From: an uncultured Clostridia bacterium
GTDB taxonomy: Bacteria; Bacillota_I; Bacilli_A; RF39; UBA660
NCBI GenBank assembly: GCA_947643225.1
Contig: CANRVH010000002.1
Location: 9,628 to 73,627 of the forward strand
Direction of reading: 5' to 3'
Length of the DNA: 64,000 nt
Below the pieces are notes generated by a model. That model worked only from the letters and a program-made list of their open reading frames with translations, did not search any database and was not told the origin of the DNA. The translations under genes were made by a program, and so were the position numbers. The stretch's first letter is position 1. Each line of letters opens with the position of its first letter. Of the stretch, positions 3,233-51,988 are shown piece after piece.

Positions 3233-3871
3233 ATGGGACACTTCTTAACAGCCAAATATTATCAATTTGATATCGACAAAATCTACTTTTATCCTTATGG
3301 GGGAATATCAAAATTTAATTTAAAAATGAATGTTAGTCTCAAAAAGGAATTAATAGTTCTGCTTATGGGACCAATATTTCAAATTATAGCATATTTAATA
3401 TTAATCAATATAGATTTCTTTATAAATGACAAGTTACTAATCAAATCAGTTCACTATTCAATTTTAGCTTTTAACCTATTACCAATATATCCATTAGATG
3501 GGGGAAAGTTATTAAATATTTTCTTAAATTATAGGTTTAACTTTCAATTAAGTATGAAAATAGTAATTTTTTTATCCTATTTTGTTGTTTTCATTTTGTT
3601 TATTTATTTTTTTAAAACAGAATTTAGCCTAAATATAGTGTTAATGTTATGCTTTTTACTTTATAAAATAAAAGTAGAAAACAACAAAAGAAATTTTTAT
3701 TATGATAAATTCTTGTTAGAACGGTACTTGAATAATTACAGTTTTAAAAAAAAGAAAAAAGTCGCTTCTATAAATCACTTATATAGAGATAGATCACATC
3801 TTATAAAAGGGAAGAATAGATACTATACAGAAAAAGAAATACTTACTAAAAAATTTTCCCAAAAATATTGA
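3233..3871 (+). CDS. spoIVFB: site-2 protease, M50 family, SpoIVFB-like (pro-sigma-K processing protease-like); true start probably upstream, non-canonical
   Basis: HEMGH is at the very start of the ATG-ORF. NLLPIYPLDGGKLL and FLLERY motifs match B. subtilis SpoIVFB. The same frame is open upstream to 3107 and encodes the expected TM1 (LTILFAFTSVLIGAFLPFLIISILISIHEMGH), but has no ATG/GTG/TTG. Confidence 0.75.
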   Translation: MGHFLTAKYYQFDIDKIYFYPYGGISKFNLKMNVSLKKELIVLLMGPIFQIIAYLILINIDFFINDKLLIKSVHYSILAFNLLPIYPLDGGKLLNIFLNYRFNFQLSMKIVIFLSYFVVFILFIYFFKTEFSLNIVLMLCFLLYKIKVENNKRNFYYDKFLLERYLNNYSFKKKKKVASINHLYRDRSHLIKGKNRYYTEKEILTKKFSQKY

Positions 3872-3897
3872 CAGAAAAAATAATACTATGCTATAAT
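3868..3897 (+). promoter_or_regulatory. sigma-A-type promoter for tRNA-Ala (TTGACA-N18-TGcTATAAT)
   Basis: TTGACA at 3868-3873. Extended -10 TGCTATAAT at 3889-3897, about 33 nt upstream of the tRNA 5' end. Confidence 0.6.
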
Positions 3898-3929
3898 CAA
3901 TTTACTGGTTAAATAAATCAGTATTAAAT

Positions 3930-4005
3930 GGGGCATTAGCTCAGCTGGGAGAGCGTCACGTTTGCACCGTGAAGGTCAGCGGTTCGATCCCGCTATGCTC
4001 CACCA
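3930..4005 (+). tRNA. tRNA-Ala (anticodon TGC)
   Basis: Cloverleaf folded by hand. Acceptor GGGGCAT/ATGCTCC; D arm GCTC..GAGC; anticodon stem TCACG/CGTGA with loop TTTGCAC; T arm GGTTCGATCC; encoded CCA. Confidence 0.9.
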
Positions 4006-4115
4006 GATTGATAGGAAACTCGAACTTTTCGAGTATTAAGTAAAACGACTTGTCAAAAAGTCGTTTTTATGATATTATGAATATGTCAAGGAAACTTGCA
4101 TAAAATAAAAAAGGG
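4006..4115 (+). repeat. tRNA-adjacent ~110-bp repeat module, copy A (hairpin ACTCGAA..TTCGAGT; terminator-like hairpin AAAACGACTtgtcaaaaAGTCGTTTTT; conserved core ATATGTCAAGGAAACTTGCATAAAATAAAAAAGG)
   Basis: Near-identical to 49627-49738 (after tRNA-Arg) and to the inverted copy at 51873-51988. Starts at the first base after the tRNA CCA. Confidence 0.8.
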
Positions 4116-4205
4116 GAATACTTAACGCTCCAATGTTGAGTACTCGCCACTAATTTGTGTAAGCACTTAATTTACTGAATGTAAATTGAGTGCTTTTCTC
4201 TTATT
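4103..4205 (+). ncRNA. putative small antisense RNA (candidate type I antitoxin) A; convergent with peptide gene 4214-4297
   Basis: TTGCAT -35-like in the module core. Ends in an intrinsic terminator (GCACTTAATTTACtgaatgTAAATTGAGTGC + TTTTCTC, 4165-4203). No ORF. Its 3' end abuts or overlaps the 3' end of the minus-strand peptide gene. Boundaries are approximate. Confidence 0.3.
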
Positions 4206-4213
4206 ATAGATTA

Positions 4214-4297
4214 CTACTTTACTAAAGTAAAAAGTAAGGCTATGAGTAAGATGATAATTAAAATAAGAGATGAGATTAAAAAATCTTTCTTATGCAT
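4214..4297 (-). CDS. 27-aa hydrophobic peptide MHKKDFLISSLILIIILLIALLFTLVK (candidate type I toxin, Fst/SprA1-like)
   Basis: Hand-translated minus-strand ORF with RBS AGGAGG 8 nt upstream of ATG. Paralogous to the peptide at 51710-51793 (MNKKDFLIFALVIIIFLLLLLLFITLI). Not in the ORF track because it is under 60 aa. Confidence 0.5.
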   Translation of the reverse strand: MHKKDFLISSLILIIILLIALLFTLVK

Positions 4298-4420
4298 ATC
4301 ATCAGCCTCCTTTCTTACGAAAGTTGGCAAGCATTCAACTGCTAATATATTCCCTAAGTAAATTATAGCAAGAGATTTGCTGTATAACAATATGATTGAC
4401 TAAATTTTGTCAATTTAATA

Positions 4421-4458
4421 AAAAACACGCTTGTATATTGCCAAATCAATATACATTA
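4421..4458 (+). promoter_or_regulatory. conserved promoter/operator motif copy 1 (AAACACgCTTGtATATTGcCAAATCAATATACATTA), upstream of the DUF1653 pseudogene
   Basis: One of four copies of a ~30-bp motif. It contains the dyad ATATTG-N6/7-CAATAT and lies between -35-like and -10-like hexamers. Confidence 0.45.
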
Positions 4459-4480
4459 ACTAAAGAAAGGAAACAATATT

Positions 4481-4732
4481 ATGAATGAAATACAAGTAAA
4501 CAAGATTTATAAGCATTTTAAGGGGAAATTCATTAGAGTCGTATGTGTAGGACTTGATGCAGAAACAAAAAAAGAAATGGTAGCAATCGAAGAACTAGAG
4601 GAATCAGAAGGATATCCAAAAGGTCAAATATGATTTAGAGATAAAAGTGATTTTTTTAAAGAAGTTGATCATGAAAAATATCCAGATATAAAGCAAAAAT
4701 ACAGATTTGAGTTACAGGATGATATAAATTAG
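4481..4732 (+). pseudogene. DUF1653-family gene with in-frame TGA at the conserved Trp position
   Basis: Translates MNEIQVNKIYKHFKGKFIRV...GYPKGQI*FRDKSDFFKEV...KQKYRFELQDDIN. The stop aligns with W in the intact paralog at 8352-8576 (..NSPLWVRPYSLFLDEV..RFELQ). Good RBS. Confidence 0.6.
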
Positions 4733-4860
4733 TTGTTAAACGTCCTCTCTTATGGCACCCTATAGATAGGAAACTTGAACTTTTAATGTTTCGAGTTTTA
4801 ATATGCTTAAATTTATGATAAAATATCTATAGAAATCTAATTGATTTATGTCAATTTAGT

Positions 4861-16115: not shown

Positions 16116-16243
16116 TGACATCATATATAGTCTTGTGATAGAATCTAGTTGTTTGAAGCCTCATCTTCAAACCGCATTGAAAAGGTTTAAAAACGATATG
16201 TACCTTAAAAGCGAGTCTTAAGATTTTATAAAGGAGGTAAGTT
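16116..16243 (+). promoter_or_regulatory. rplU promoter plus probable ribosomal-protein L21 leader
   Basis: TTGACA (16116) followed by an extended TGtgaTAGAAT -10. Hairpin GTTTGAAGcctcatCTTCAAAC in the 5' UTR, typical of the Firmicutes L21 leader position. Confidence 0.45.
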
Positions 16244-49549: not shown

Positions 49550-49626
49550 ATCCCCGTAGCTCACCTGGATAGAGCAAAAGTTTCCTAAACTTTAGGTAGT
49601 AGGTTCAAGTCCTATCGGGGATACCA
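49550..49626 (+). tRNA. tRNA-Arg (anticodon CCT)
   Basis: Hand-folded. Acceptor ATCCCCG/CGGGGAT; D arm GCTC..GAGC; anticodon stem AAAGT/ACTTT with loop TTCCTAA; T loop TTCAAGT; encoded CCA. Confidence 0.85.
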
Positions 49627-49738
49627 GATTGATAACAAACTCGAACTTTCGAGTAACAAGAGAAAGAACGACTTGTCAAAAAGTCGTTTTTATGTTACTA
49701 TGAATATGTCAAGGAAACTTGCATAAAATAAAAAAGGA
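49627..49738 (+). repeat. tRNA-adjacent ~110-bp repeat module, copy B
   Basis: GATTGATAacAAACTCGAACTTTCGAGTA...AACGACTTGTCAAAAAGTCGTTTTTATG..ATGAATATGTCAAGGAAACTTGCATAAAATAAAAAAGG. Same start position relative to the CCA as copy A. Confidence 0.8.
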
Positions 49739-49827
49739 TACATTTGATTGTGAGAATCAGATGTAATCCCTTGAAGGATAGCATCTGAAATCAACTAATG
49801 TTGAAATCAGATGCTTTGTCTATTTTA
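49725..49827 (+). ncRNA. putative small antisense RNA (candidate type I antitoxin) B
   Basis: No ORF. Terminator GCATCTGAAATCAA..TTGAAATCAGATGC + TTTGTCTATTTT (49781-49827) overlaps the stop of the minus-strand peptide gene. Contains GCATCTGA, complementary to ATCAGATGC in the peptide mRNA 5' UTR. Boundaries approximate. Confidence 0.3.
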
Positions 49828-49897
49828 GGAGTAAAATGATTACTACTAAAAATAGGAGTAATATTATAATAAACTGAAATAGTTCTCTTTTTGTCAT
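49820..49897 (-). CDS. 25-aa hydrophobic peptide MTKRELFQFIIILLLFLVVIILLLK (candidate type I toxin)
   Basis: Internal Met of track ORF 49820-50041, with RBS AAAGGTGGTGA. Charged N-terminus plus a single TM, like peptides A and C. Confidence 0.45.
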   Translation of the reverse strand: MTKRELFQFIIILLLFLVVIILLLK

Positions 49898-50034
49898 AAA
49901 TATCACCACCTTTCTTTTATCTTTGATAAATAGAAAGGGAAAGCATCTGATATTTTCAAACGTATCCATTAACATTATAGCAAACATTTGTTCTTCATAC
50001 AATAAATTTAATACTAAATGTTGTGATAATTTAG

Positions 50035-50060
50035 AAAACACACTTGCATATTGTCATAAT
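50035..50060 (+). promoter_or_regulatory. conserved promoter/operator motif copy 3 (AAAACACACTTGCATATTGTCATAAT), upstream of the MTase pseudogene
   Basis: Left half of the motif is conserved and the -10-like TGtCATAAT sits at the expected position. The right dyad arm is lost. Confidence 0.4.
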
Positions 50061-50102
50061 AAGCAAGATGCATTTGGGTATTAGTTAGAAGGGGAAATTT
50101 AT

Positions 50103-50669
50103 ATGACTTTTAAAGAAAAGGCTAAAAATTATGATAATGAATCAAGAGAAAAACGATCTCAAATCATTGCAGAAAAGATATTGAACATTGTTGGAGATAA
50201 ACAAAACTCTATGATGATGGAATATGGCTGTGCAACTGGATTAATATCGTTTCATTTATATGATAGATTTAAAAAATTAACTTTGATTGATTCTGAAGAG
50301 TAAATAATAAATATAGTAAGAAAAAAAGTTATTAATTATAATATATCTAATGTTATACCTATTAGAAAAGATTTAACAAAAGAAAAATATAATGTAGAAA
50401 AATTTGATGTTATTTTTACTTCATTGACACTTTATCACATAGTAGATGTAAAAAATATGATAAAGACATTTTATAGTATGTTAAATAAAGATGGTATATT
50501 AATTATAGATTTAGATAAAGAAGATGGTAGTTTTCATATGGATACAAAAGATTTTAGTGGTCATAATGGATTTGAACATAAATATATGGAAAATATATTA
50601 AAATCTGTTGGATTGTTTAATATTAAATCTGAAACATTTTTCAATAGCGAAAAGAAGATAAAAAAATAA
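50103..50669 (+). pseudogene. class I SAM-dependent methyltransferase interrupted by one in-frame TAA (50301-50303)
   Basis: Two track ORFs (50103-50303, 50424-50669) share one frame. Read through: motif I EYGCATG, post-I LIDSEE*, motif II FDVIFTS, motif III LNKDGILII. Confidence 0.6.
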
Positions 50670-50732
50670 AGTTATAATACCTCCTCTTTTAGGGTACCTT
50701 AAAGGATGACGTTCAACAACTTCCTTGTAATA

Positions 50733-51485
50733 CTATTTAGAACTATATATAAGATGATAAGGATATCCCCTTTTATCAATATTATCTAAATTTAGGTTTA
50801 AATCTTTAGCTAATTTAAGTAATTTATCATATTCGTTCATAGCGCTTTCATCATAATTTTTAACTTCTATTTCTATAAAATATCCTAAATTTTCTACATA
50901 ATCTAAGGCAATTTCATATTTATTTAAGTAAAAATATGTATCCCTTACTTTATTAACTATTGCGATTTCTTCCATTCCTAGAATTTTAAAAATTTTATCT
51001 AAATTAACTTCATTATCTATTTCAACTTCATATTCATCACAATACATATTGTTGTACCAATTTTTGTAATTTAGTATTTTTTTATTACCTCTTATTCCTA
51101 TTCTAAGCCATTCGTTTATCATTTTTTTACCATCATTTAGAAACCTTCTATGAGTCGGTTGATAATATGCATCAACTTGTTTACTCTCATTTAAAAATTT
51201 AGCATTATTTTTCATAAAAATTTCAATTTTATGAAATTCATTTTTTGAAAGTTTTATTTTTACCTCTGTTTCTATATCATTTTTCTTTGTATTTCCATGA
51301 ATTAAGTAACTAGCATTACAATTAAATAACTCGCTTAATTTAATTATAGTTTCTAAACTGGGTTCTGTTCTATTAGATTCCCAACTTGAAATTGTTTTAT
51401 CAGTTACAAAAATTTTATTTGCCAAATCATTTTGGGTCCATTTTTTATTTTTTCTCAAATCTGCTATTCGATTTCCTAAATTCAT
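50733..51485 (-). CDS. XRE-family HTH fused to CYTH domain (CyaB-like class IV adenylyl cyclase/triphosphate tunnel fold)
   Basis: N-terminal HTH (RIADLRKNKKWTQNDLANKIFVTDKTISSWESNRTEPSLETIIKLSELFN). CYTH motifs ETEVKIKL, VDAYYQPT, WLRIGIRGNKKILNYK, EYEVEID, RDTYFYL, LDYVENLGYFIEIEV. Start assigned to the internal ATG at 51485 (RBS GGTGA); the track ORF extends to 51632 across its own promoter. Confidence 0.65.
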   Translation of the reverse strand: MNLGNRIADLRKNKKWTQNDLANKIFVTDKTISSWESNRTEPSLETIIKLSELFNCNASYLIHGNTKKNDIETEVKIKLSKNEFHKIEIFMKNNAKFLNESKQVDAYYQPTHRRFLNDGKKMINEWLRIGIRGNKKILNYKNWYNNMYCDEYEVEIDNEVNLDKIFKILGMEEIAIVNKVRDTYFYLNKYEIALDYVENLGYFIEIEVKNYDESAMNEYDKLLKLAKDLNLNLDNIDKRGYPYHLIYSSK

Positions 51486-51550
51486 TTTTATCACCAAATT
51501 AATTGTATCATAATACAACATGTTATATGCTCTACATTTTGTAGAATGAT

Positions 51551-51587
51551 AGTCGTTATTTGATTTTGTCAAATTGCAAGTGTGTTT
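51551..51587 (-). promoter_or_regulatory. conserved promoter/operator motif copy 4 (AAAACACACTTGCAATTTGACAAAATCAAATAACGAC), upstream of the HTH-CYTH gene
   Basis: Dyad ATTTG-N7-CAAAT; TATCAT -10-like just downstream. Candidate autoregulatory site. Confidence 0.45.
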
Positions 51588-51709
51588 TCTATATTGAAAA
51601 AATTTAATATAAAACCGCCGATTTAAGAACAAATGTTTACTATAATAAATTTAGGAACGCTTAATAAGTTGGGTGGAGCCAAACTTCATAAAAGAAGGGA
51701 GGCGATATA

Positions 51710-51793
51710 ATGAACAAGAAAGATTTCTTAATCTTTGCTCTAGTAATTATTATCTTCCTTTTACTATTATTGTTATTTATAACTTTAATATAA
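51710..51793 (+). CDS. 27-aa hydrophobic peptide MNKKDFLIFALVIIIFLLLLLLFITLI (candidate type I toxin, paralog of peptide A)
   Basis: RBS AAGGGAGG. TATAAT -10 at 51643-51648. The 3' end abuts the hairpin TCCACCTAA..TTAGGTGGA. Confidence 0.5.
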   Translation: MNKKDFLIFALVIIIFLLLLLLFITLI

Positions 51794-51885
51794 AAGAAAT
51801 CCACCTAACTCTAGCATAGATTTAGGTGGAACCAAATACATGGTGACACTCAACACTGCAATATTGAATGTTCCTTTTATTTTAT
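51787..51885 (-). ncRNA. putative small antisense RNA (candidate type I antitoxin) C
   Basis: Minus-strand terminator TCCACCTAAatctatgctagagTTAGGTGGA + TTTCTTTTAT. The segment TTTGGTTCCACCTAAA can pair with 15 contiguous nt (2 G-U) of the peptide mRNA 5' UTR (TTGGGTGGAGCCAAA). Its 5' part (CAGTGTTGAGTGTC) is homologous to sRNA A (CAATGTTGAGTACTC). Confidence 0.35.
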
Positions 51886-51988
51886 GCAAGTTTCCTTGAC
51901 ATATTGACCATAACATAAAAACGCACCTTTATCAAGTACGTTTTTTAATTACTACTCGAACTCTCACTATTTTATGTATTCGAGTTTT
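51873..51988 (-). repeat. repeat module, copy C (inverted orientation, no adjacent tRNA)
   Basis: Reverse complement carries ACTCGAA..TTCGAGT, then AAAAAACGTAC..GTGCGTTTTTATG and the identical core ATATGTCAAGGAAACTTGCATAAAATAAAAGG. Confidence 0.75.

Follow-up and report, generated by a model that had tools for sequence, protein, structure and literature searches.

Toxin-antitoxin (TA) systems of type I are, according to a 2025 paper (PMC12390103), known so far only from Proteobacteria, Firmicutes and Tenericutes, and among them Fst/RNAII, TxpA/RatA, SprA1, SprG and BsrE/G/H are described as Gram-positive systems with antisense RNA on the 3' side (T1TAdb paper, PMC8594479). The candidate module described here, locus A, lies in a stretch of 64,000 nucleotides (nt) of DNA from an uncultured Clostridia bacterium (contig CANRVH010000002.1, positions 9,628 to 73,627; referred to at its full length as the window), where a small RNA (sRNA) gene on the + strand and the gene of a hydrophobic peptide on the - strand converge within a functional unit at about 4043-4390, and by its organisation this candidate belongs with the Gram-positive group. 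In bsrG/SR4, bsrE/SR5 and txpA/RatA, as at locus A, the genes are convergent, the antisense RNA is on the 3' side of the toxin mRNA and the peptide is a small hydrophobic single helix; a perfect 3' overlap like theirs, of about 75-125 nt, is predicted for the module from its terminators. These systems act by duplex formation and RNase III, and the same would be expected of the module. They differ from it in that no similarity of peptide or RNA sequence was found (Pfam, NCBIfam, Rfam), that their peptides have 38-59 amino acids rather than 24-30, that their antisense RNAs do not end short of the open reading frame (ORF) as the sRNA of locus A does, and that they are borne by prophages whereas the modules are chromosomal and linked to tRNA genes; an mRNA 5' end complementary to its own terminator is not known for them. 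With Ibs/Sib, Ldr/Rdl and Zor/Orz of Escherichia coli the module has in common that a genome holds several diverged copies, some of them in tandem, that the hydrophobic peptides are very short and that cognate specificity resides in a variable RNA segment, but in those systems the antisense RNA either lies wholly within the mRNA or is divergent, the hosts belong to another phylum and no sequence similarity was found. In its predicted working the module is most like txpA/RatA and bsrG/SR4, with their long 3' overlap, combined with a 5'-3' clamp of the kind known from hok and AapA1.

Judged by comparison of sequences, locus A is a genuine, conserved and co-evolving module of peptide and antisense RNA, and it is probably a copy of a previously undescribed multicopy type I TA-like family of uncultured gut Bacilli. 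A first-pass annotation had proposed a type I TA locus here, and this general call is strongly supported by the comparative evidence, because promoters and terminators are conserved on both strands, RNA helices covary, the peptide is under purifying selection, the modules are multicopy and occur in tandem, and the two genes co-evolve. Searches of the literature, including a full-text search for the RNA sequence, found nothing on this RNA or these peptides, nothing specific on type I TA in Mollicutes or RF39, and no type I TA system reported from these uncultured gut Bacilli.

Copies, gene anatomy and conservation

The tblastn search for similar peptides that the first-pass annotation had suggested, carried out together with blastn against the window, found two paralogous modules, B and C (Table 1). 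Promoter and first 30 nt or so of the sRNA are 92-97% identical among the three, the remainder having diverged, and a covariance model (R1) recovers three copies in the window and no more, scoring 103.9 (A), 96.9 (B) and 94.2 bits (C) on the strand of the RNA but 17-23 bits on the other one (16.6 bits at locus A). Elsewhere, the 21-mer at the 5' end of the sRNA, GTCAAGGAAACTTGCATAAAA, is present as an exact match in at least 119 genome stretches in a search of one genome per GTDB species; the family-wide counts of units given below rest on these stretches, which do not include the window's own genome and have at most about 90% flanking identity to the window. They represent about 105 distinct assemblies (species-level metagenome-assembled genomes, MAGs), nearly all of them low-GC MAGs labelled as uncultured Bacilli, Tenericutes or Mollicutes, from the gut of rabbit, mouse, chicken, goat and human and including Candidatus Ventrenecus and Candidatus Onthousia. 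A profile search with nhmmer gave 149 sRNA copies among the matches listed. The modules are multicopy within genomes and occupy variable genomic sites, with tandem copies 390-480 nt apart on several contigs, and 97 of 118 complete units have a convergent hydrophobic ORF of 24-30 codons preceded by a Shine-Dalgarno (SD) sequence. The architecture is far beyond chance, given two more copies in the window, about 150 elsewhere, and an sRNA fold far more stable than expected (z = -7.1).

The + strand unit, described at the outset as free of ORFs, indeed has no conserved ORF. It contains a 5' hairpin (HP1), an A-tract, a second hairpin (HP2) and the strong terminator with T-run that had been noted before and is confirmed, being the only terminator-like site within 3600-4800 in a terminator scan (0.3 expected); the end of the T-run can be read as between about 4199 and 4205. 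The features assigned earlier to the interval 4103-4297 are all there, but the + strand unit begins before it, since an extended -10 promoter sets the predicted sRNA start near 4084, and the peptide promoter lies outside it on the other side. The spacing between a TGnTAnnnT sequence and the 5' hairpin is constant in 123 of 129 distinct units. The sRNA of locus A has a minimum free energy (MFE) of -39.8 kcal/mol. In an alignment of 40 sRNAs drawn from all six peptide families (below), three helices comprise 25 consensus pairs, 13 of them with compensatory change: 8 of 9 in the terminator, 5 of 8 in HP2, and none in HP1 (AUGU-CAAG-GAAA-CUUG-CAU), which is essentially invariant in this set selected by exact match. 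Paired states occupy 97.2% of alignment cells, whereas shuffling gives 86% and sliding of the partners no more than 36%, and cells with double changes number 141 versus 38 in shuffles. The many G-U pairs imply that the helices are optimised on the + strand, that of the sRNA. Rare diverged copies keep the 5' hairpin with a different stem, such as AUGGAG-GGAA-CUCCAU in L098. Apart from the tRNA, Rfam has no match better than E = 1 in 3900-4480, and in the window as a whole only tRNAs and an L21 leader reach its gathering score.

The only direct repeat within 4040-4400 is that of the HP2 3' arm (4136-4155) and the terminator 3' arm (4186-4205), with 70% identity over 20 nt, and because these arms are direct repeats the two hairpins look like paralogues. 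The same sequence recurs once more, where the peptide mRNA begins. In L034, the HP2 3' arm is fused straight to the U-tail of the terminator, as if the GUUGAGU.C repeat arms had recombined.

On the - strand, the 27-amino-acid ORF and its AGGAGG ribosome-binding site are present as first described (Table 1), and at the place corresponding to the peptide promoter 92 of 94 units have a -10 box, mostly TATAAT with TG before it. The peptides have a basic N-terminus and one hydrophobic helix and form six families on one scaffold: F1 (M[HSNY]KKDFLI..., 27 amino acids, loci A and B), F2 (MTKKDFLIF..., 24), F3 (MTKRE.SQFIII..., 25, locus C), F4 (MKKKDLLISF...IKK, 29), F5 (MKTKTFIIKVLK...IKK, 30) and F6 (MRKSEK...IVPTV, 30), of which F2, F4, F5 and F6 have no locus in the window. 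Peptides of the family and length of locus A occur in 20 or more other units. Within families, single-base codon differences are synonymous in 2934 cases and non-synonymous in 2312, a synonymous share of 56% that compares with 30% and 9% in the other two frames and 24% at random, and the second codon position changes least; the excess over expectation and over the other frames means that the ORF evolves as a coding sequence. No family match was found for the peptide in Pfam and NCBIfam (E <= 10) or PHROGs, the only matches being non-significant ones to generic transmembrane segments, and an extended ORF of 58 codons had no match in a set of 5.8 billion proteins, which implies that these genes are not annotated.

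AT-rich genomes yield many short ORFs rich in Ile, Leu, Phe and Lys, and in the window a tblastn search with the locus A peptide turns up numerous hydrophobic matches, all of them weak, so that a chance origin of the ORF next to an ordinary terminator region of a tRNA had to be considered. This explanation is already refuted: ORF length, frame, start and SD sequence are conserved in about 100 units, in which synonymous change is in excess, and the sRNA has a promoter of its own and is present at locus B without a tRNA nearby.

In 22 of 92 units, and in 35 of 92 if [AG]AAC is allowed, the -10 box of the peptide promoter is adjoined by a sequence GAAC-N4-GTT[CT], where 0.1-0.2 would be expected; in the window this sequence is found at 49982-49993 (-, module C) and 51627-51638 (+, module B), and locus A has instead another palindrome, AGCAA-N5-TTGCT, at 4367-4381. 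The motif resembles the LexA/Cheo box of Firmicutes, and the toxins tisB and dinQ are damage-inducible; by analogy, it suggests damage-inducible transcription of the toxin.

Predicted complementarity of the 3' ends and a predicted 5'-3' clamp

The two genes meet at their 3' ends. The sRNA ends close to the stop codon of the ORF in every family: the stop codon of locus A lies beyond the T-run by 14 nt, the figure given in the first-pass annotation, the gap is 11 nt in F2, the two abut in most of F1, and in F4 and F5 the ORF overlaps the sRNA 3' end by 12-13 nt, so that the T-run encodes the C-terminal KK; in F6 the overlap is 25 nt. Because the terminator hairpin at 4161-4195 has a U-run on the + strand only, the peptide mRNA should read through it. 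The antisense of HP2 still forms a hairpin, with a mean of -8.2 kcal/mol across families (locus A, Table 1), and in every family it is followed by about ten U in the next 12 nt (at locus A UUUUUUAUUUUAU, the antisense of the conserved A-tract). Hairpin and U-tract together are probably the intrinsic terminator of the peptide mRNA, and its position opposite the A-tract would explain why the A-tract is conserved. With its end at this site, the mRNA is predicted to be perfectly complementary to the sRNA over about 95 nt at the 3' ends; this length holds only for an mRNA that ends there, and the minimum seen is the overlap of ORF and sRNA in F4-F6, 12-25 nt. The 3'-overlapping RNAs named as a hallmark in the first-pass annotation are likewise a prediction made from putative terminators.

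A further element ties the peptide mRNA to HP2. The first 32 nt or so of each peptide mRNA (x5) are a family-specific, same-sense near-copy of HP2, with 86% identity, and x5 is therefore complementary to the 3' terminator region of its own mRNA. At locus A the duplex of x5 with antisense-HP2 reaches -30.4 kcal/mol, against -12.7 kcal/mol with HP2; over all units its mean is -32.8 kcal/mol (92 of 92 units), against about -17 kcal/mol with anything in the sRNA. Cognate pairs exceed those with other families by 15.3 kcal/mol, and the cognate partner beats all non-cognate ones in 58 of 92 units. Transitions between x5 and HP2 are biased 161:49 toward changes that keep a wobble pair, and 195:7 when parsed by the duplex. 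In MFE folds of the hypothetical full-length mRNAs of A, B and C, the 5' end closes onto antisense-HP2; for the whole - strand transcript of locus A, nt 2-31 pair with nt 207-242. Pairing in trans between short segments of the sRNA and the peptide 5' untranslated region (UTR) was also considered and rejected, since it is much weaker than the pairing with antisense-HP2 and whole-length RNAduplex predictions are noisy; its cognate advantage is 3.6 kcal/mol overall and is absent in F5 and F6.

The working of the module may then be envisaged as follows. A sigma-70-type promoter on the - strand would drive an mRNA of about 250 nt for the 27-amino-acid peptide, which with its single transmembrane segment is presumed to be a membrane-damaging toxin, and the convergent extended -10 promoter would drive a presumed antitoxin RNA of about 120 nt, built of a near-invariant GNRA hairpin (HP1), the A-tract, the family-specific HP2 and a terminator of its own. 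Each transcript would terminate inside the other's gene, the peptide mRNA at antisense-HP2 and its U-tract, leaving the stretch of perfect 3' complementarity as in txpA/RatA and bsrG/SR4. Pairing of the first 32 nt or so of the mRNA with its own 3' terminator would form a 5'-3' clamp like the fbi/tac pairing of hok or that of the AapA1 primary transcript and would keep the mRNA stable and poorly translated. The sRNA is perfectly complementary to the same 3' segment, so that it should compete for this segment and displace the mRNA 5' end; the long duplex would be cut by RNase III, the 5' end would be exposed, and peptide would not be synthesised while the sRNA is made. This detailed mechanism of clamp and competition is offered tentatively, with a confidence slightly short of even.

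Several observations weigh against parts of this interpretation. Antisense-HP2 is weaker than HP2 (-8.2 versus -12.0 kcal/mol) and is not called by a simple terminator scan, so that the mRNA 3' end could lie elsewhere. The similarity of x5 and HP2 could partly reflect shared ancestry by inverted duplication rather than selection for pairing, and the units are phylogenetically related, so that counts of them are not independent. The near-invariance of HP1 is partly a matter of ascertainment, HP1 having been the search key, and in 21 of 118 units (L032, L033, L034, L039, L043 and 16 others) the sRNA occurs without a recognisable peptide gene. Sequestration of the SD sequence, often seen as a hallmark, does not exceed that of shuffled controls for F1, F3 and F4, which include the three loci of the window: at locus A, the SD sequence lies in a weak hairpin (GCC..CUUUC-GUAA-GAAAG..GGC, 4329->4305) and its pairing probability of 0.59 does not differ significantly from the 0.54 of controls, and the 5' UTR alone folds with z = -1.4. 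SD sequestration is clear only in F2, F5 and F6 (pairing of 0.9-0.97 versus about 0.7 in controls) and was rejected as a hallmark of the whole family; no consensus structure emerged from RNAalifold of the peptide 5' UTRs across families, and analyses of single sequences were used in its place.

Some of these properties recall par (Fst, RNA I/RNA II) of the Enterococcus faecalis plasmid pAD1 and SprA1/SprA1AS of Staphylococcus aureus, in which transcription is convergent and the peptide has about 30 amino acids, the sRNA does not overlap the ORF, as at locus A, and the 5' UTR is structured around the SD sequence. In par, a helix with the mRNA 5' end stabilises the toxin RNA. A par/Fst module in the strict sense would have one bidirectional terminator shared by two RNAs that interact chiefly by way of direct repeats at the 5' side, near the start codon, and a peptide of the Fst family. 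The convergent genes and the end of the sRNA ahead of the stop codon at locus A agree with Fst/RNAII and SprA1 (PMC8594479), and x5 pairs with an arm of the sRNA terminator at -16.6 kcal/mol in locus A, cognate pairs being better than non-cognate ones in F1-F4. Nevertheless, each strand has its own predicted terminator where par and SprA1 share one, and the + strand terminator lacks a U-run on the - strand; the pairing of x5 with antisense-HP2 is about two times better than with any part of the sRNA; the ORFs of F4-F6 run into the sRNA 3' end; and the charged residues of the peptide are N-terminal, unlike the charged C-terminal tail of Fst. No match to the Fst_toxin profile was found in Pfam and NCBIfam (E <= 10), and neither self-blastn nor a repeat scan of 4040-4400 revealed direct repeats of the DRa/DRb type linking the 5' part of the sRNA with the start-codon region. 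A strict par module is thus highly improbable, and the assignment to the Fst/Ldr/TxpA/SprA1 type in the first-pass annotation is not supported in the sense of family membership, as neither a toxin or antitoxin family nor the par repeats nor a shared terminator could be recognised.

The predicted pairing of mRNA 5' and 3' ends that would lock the full-length transcript is a likeness to hok/sok (fbi-tac) and to aapA1/IsoA1 of Helicobacter pylori, where the fold-back lock keeps the primary transcript inert; for the module, such a fold-back is found at the level of prediction and covariation. Those are Gram-negative systems whose antisense RNA targets the 5' region, whereas here it is on the 3' side, complementary to the very segment bound by the mRNA 5' end, with which it would compete. 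No Hok family match and no leader ORF (mok) were found.

The peptide could instead be a harmless small membrane protein, regulatory or accessory, that is tuned by a cis-antisense RNA without forming a TA system. Many single-helix bacterial proteins of 20-30 amino acids are not toxic, and the weak matches of the family scans are all to generic transmembrane segments. The modules are nonetheless multicopy, tandem and at variable sites, they place six peptide families on one regulatory scaffold under tight, double-layer RNA control, orphan sRNA copies exist, and no conserved partner gene was seen nearby; the copy number, variable sites, six families, orphan RNAs and double-layer control are traits of selfish or addictive elements rather than of a housekeeping micro-protein. 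This alternative is improbable, though it is the one with the best claim to attention beside the type I TA-like family.

If the TA reading is true, the uncultured, genome-reduced gut Bacilli hold a large unannotated set of type I TA systems, some 150 copies spread over 105 or more species-level genomes, with peptides too short for routine gene calling. Covariation links recognition hairpin, toxin 5' end and both terminators into one set, and six toxin families joined to one antitoxin 5' domain would amount to a natural experiment in RNA specificity. The predicted clamp, if true, would link the Gram-positive systems with 3' overlap mechanistically to the fold-back systems hok and AapA1. Two regulatory leads are the fixed position behind tRNA genes and the LexA-box-like sites in many toxin promoters.

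Association with tRNA genes and other features of the window

The tRNA-Ala gene named in the first-pass annotation as a neighbour of locus A was recovered by both ARAGORN and Rfam (Table 1). A tRNA gene on the same strand ends 51-158 nt upstream of the sRNA 5' motif in 46 of 126 units, at 76-92 nt in 42 of them, where about 1% would be expected by chance, and seven tRNA species are involved: Leu, Arg, Thr, Met, Ala, Gln and Lys (for example in L004, L008, L013, L017, L026, L032 and L040). In 15 more units there is only a signature like a tRNA 3' end, CCA followed by GATTGATA, without a full tRNA. In the window, the stretches concerned behind the tRNA genes are 4006-4083 (A) and 49627-49706 (C), and spacer sequences of the form CCAGATTGATA..AAACTCGAAC..TTCGAGTA are conserved behind different tRNAs; the block ACTCGAA-ctt-TTCGAGT also stands behind the tRNA-Arg gene at locus C, and a CTCGA..TCGAG palindrome in 20 of 45 tRNA-linked units. 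The tRNA transcript is likely to terminate at the perfect hairpin at 4042-4067, whose loop holds the -35 box of the sRNA promoter. Of 94 units, 40 have a terminator-like hairpin upstream of the sRNA promoter on the sRNA strand, and 27 have one there on the peptide strand; being so far from general on the peptide strand, this hairpin was rejected as a terminator of the peptide mRNA.

The near-fixed distance behind seven tRNA species, the 15 units with the tRNA-like signature, the identity of the left arm (spacer, promoter and HP1) between the window copies while the rest has diverged, and the inverted repeat formed by the module ends are all features that a tRNA-linked selfish repeat or miniature mobile element would have, with hairpins that would help it to insert or recombine at the 3' ends of tRNA genes, and with RNAs and an ORF of secondary importance. 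Yet the units of the window are accompanied by neither a transposase nor an integrase, searches of viral, plasmid and phage collections (IMG/VR, PLSDB, phage genomes) gave no match, and selection at the codon level together with strand-specific G-U covariation shows both products to be functional. As the whole explanation, a mobile element is about as remote as a strict par module; mobility and TA function are not mutually exclusive.

In a wider reading, locus A may belong to a lineage-wide, tRNA-linked and modular superfamily of type I TA systems, in which a near-invariant antitoxin 5' module of promoter, GNRA hairpin and A-tract is joined to any of six or more exchangeable cassettes, each made of a toxin and a recognition hairpin. 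Its logic of control would be new: the toxin mRNA would be clamped by its 5' end on its own terminator hairpin, a mirror image of the hairpin by which the antitoxin recognises it, and at this clamp the antitoxin would work through competitive strand displacement and not by masking of the ribosome-binding site. The A-tract would serve both as antitoxin linker and as U-tract of the toxin terminator, and the -35 box, lying as it does in a tRNA terminator loop, would tie the system to transcription of the tRNA. Taken jointly as one claim, this reading is doubtful.

Table 1. Features of locus A and its paralogous modules; positions are those of the window
Feature	Position	Strand	Basis or remark
tRNA-Ala(UGC)	3930-4005	+	ARAGORN; Rfam, 64.5 bits; upstream neighbour of the module
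Spacer palindrome ACTCGAA-ctt-TTCGAGT	4018-4034	+	sequence reading; between tRNA 3' end and module
Perfect 10-bp hairpin with A-run/T-run flanks	4042-4067		inverted repeat I5, 100% complementary
Predicted sRNA promoter: TTGTCA (4050-4055), 17 nt, extended -10 TG-n-TATTAT (4070-4078)	4050-4078	+	promoter scan, 10 of 12 matches plus TG
Candidate antitoxin sRNA, about 120 nt, no ORF	~4084-4205	+	HP1, A-tract, HP2, linker, terminator hairpin, U-run
HP1, CAAG-GAAA-CUUG tetraloop hairpin	4082-4102	+	part of sRNA
A-tract of sRNA	4103-4112	+	
HP2 of sRNA	4113-4148	+	followed by linker
sRNA terminator hairpin, 15 pairs, then TTCTCTTATT	4161-4195	+	U-run to ~4205
Predicted terminator of peptide mRNA: antisense-HP2, then U-tract	4148->4113, then 4112->4100	-	hairpin -10.8 kcal/mol
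Candidate toxin ORF, 27 amino acids, MHKKDFLISSLILIIILLIALLFTLVK	4297->4217, stop TAG 4216-4214	-	sequence and ORF reading
SD sequence AGGAGG (reverse complement)	4306-4311	-	9 nt before ATG
Peptide-mRNA 5' end (x5)	4324-4355	-	same-sense near-copy of HP2
Predicted peptide-mRNA promoter: TTGTTA, 17 nt, TG-n-TATAAT	4390->4362	-	promoter scan; start near 4355
Module C	49704-49967		adjoins tRNA-Arg, 49550-49626
Candidate sRNA of module C	49704-49823	+	
Peptide of module C, MTKRELFQFIIILLLFLVVIILLLK	49897->49820	-	
Module B	51653-51935		no tRNA nearby
Candidate sRNA of module B	51904->51792	-	
Peptide of module B, MNKKDFLIFALVIIIFLLLLLLFITLI	51710-51793	+	

Genetic code 4 (TGA read as Trp) was first suspected for the window because an ORF of the DUF1653 family crosses a TGA. 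This gene, downstream of locus A at 4481-4700 (+), has the in-frame TGA at 4631-4633, and its Pfam match (E = 2e-11) spans the TGA read as Trp; the interruption could be due to a pseudogene, a sequencing error or local recoding. Code 4 was rejected, as it lengthens long ORFs by only 9% and the ratio of TGG to in-frame TGA is 85:31; taken as a whole, the window follows code 11. It follows that the peptides of F5 (for example L007, L015 and L066), which would be 4-14 residues longer in a host that read TGA as Trp, end at the TGA after ...IKK, with the terminator T-run encoding KK. The match of an L21 ribosomal-protein leader at 16159-16228 (+; Rfam RF00559, 38.1 bits, just above the gathering score) fits a host in the Bacillota. 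Modules C and B are inverted with respect to each other, their sRNAs outside and their peptide promoters inside, and flank a segment of 1.7 kb (49700-51935) that holds two fragments, at 50103-50303 and 50424-50669, of what may be a split gene and a gene with HTH_3 and CYTH domains (50733-51632, -).

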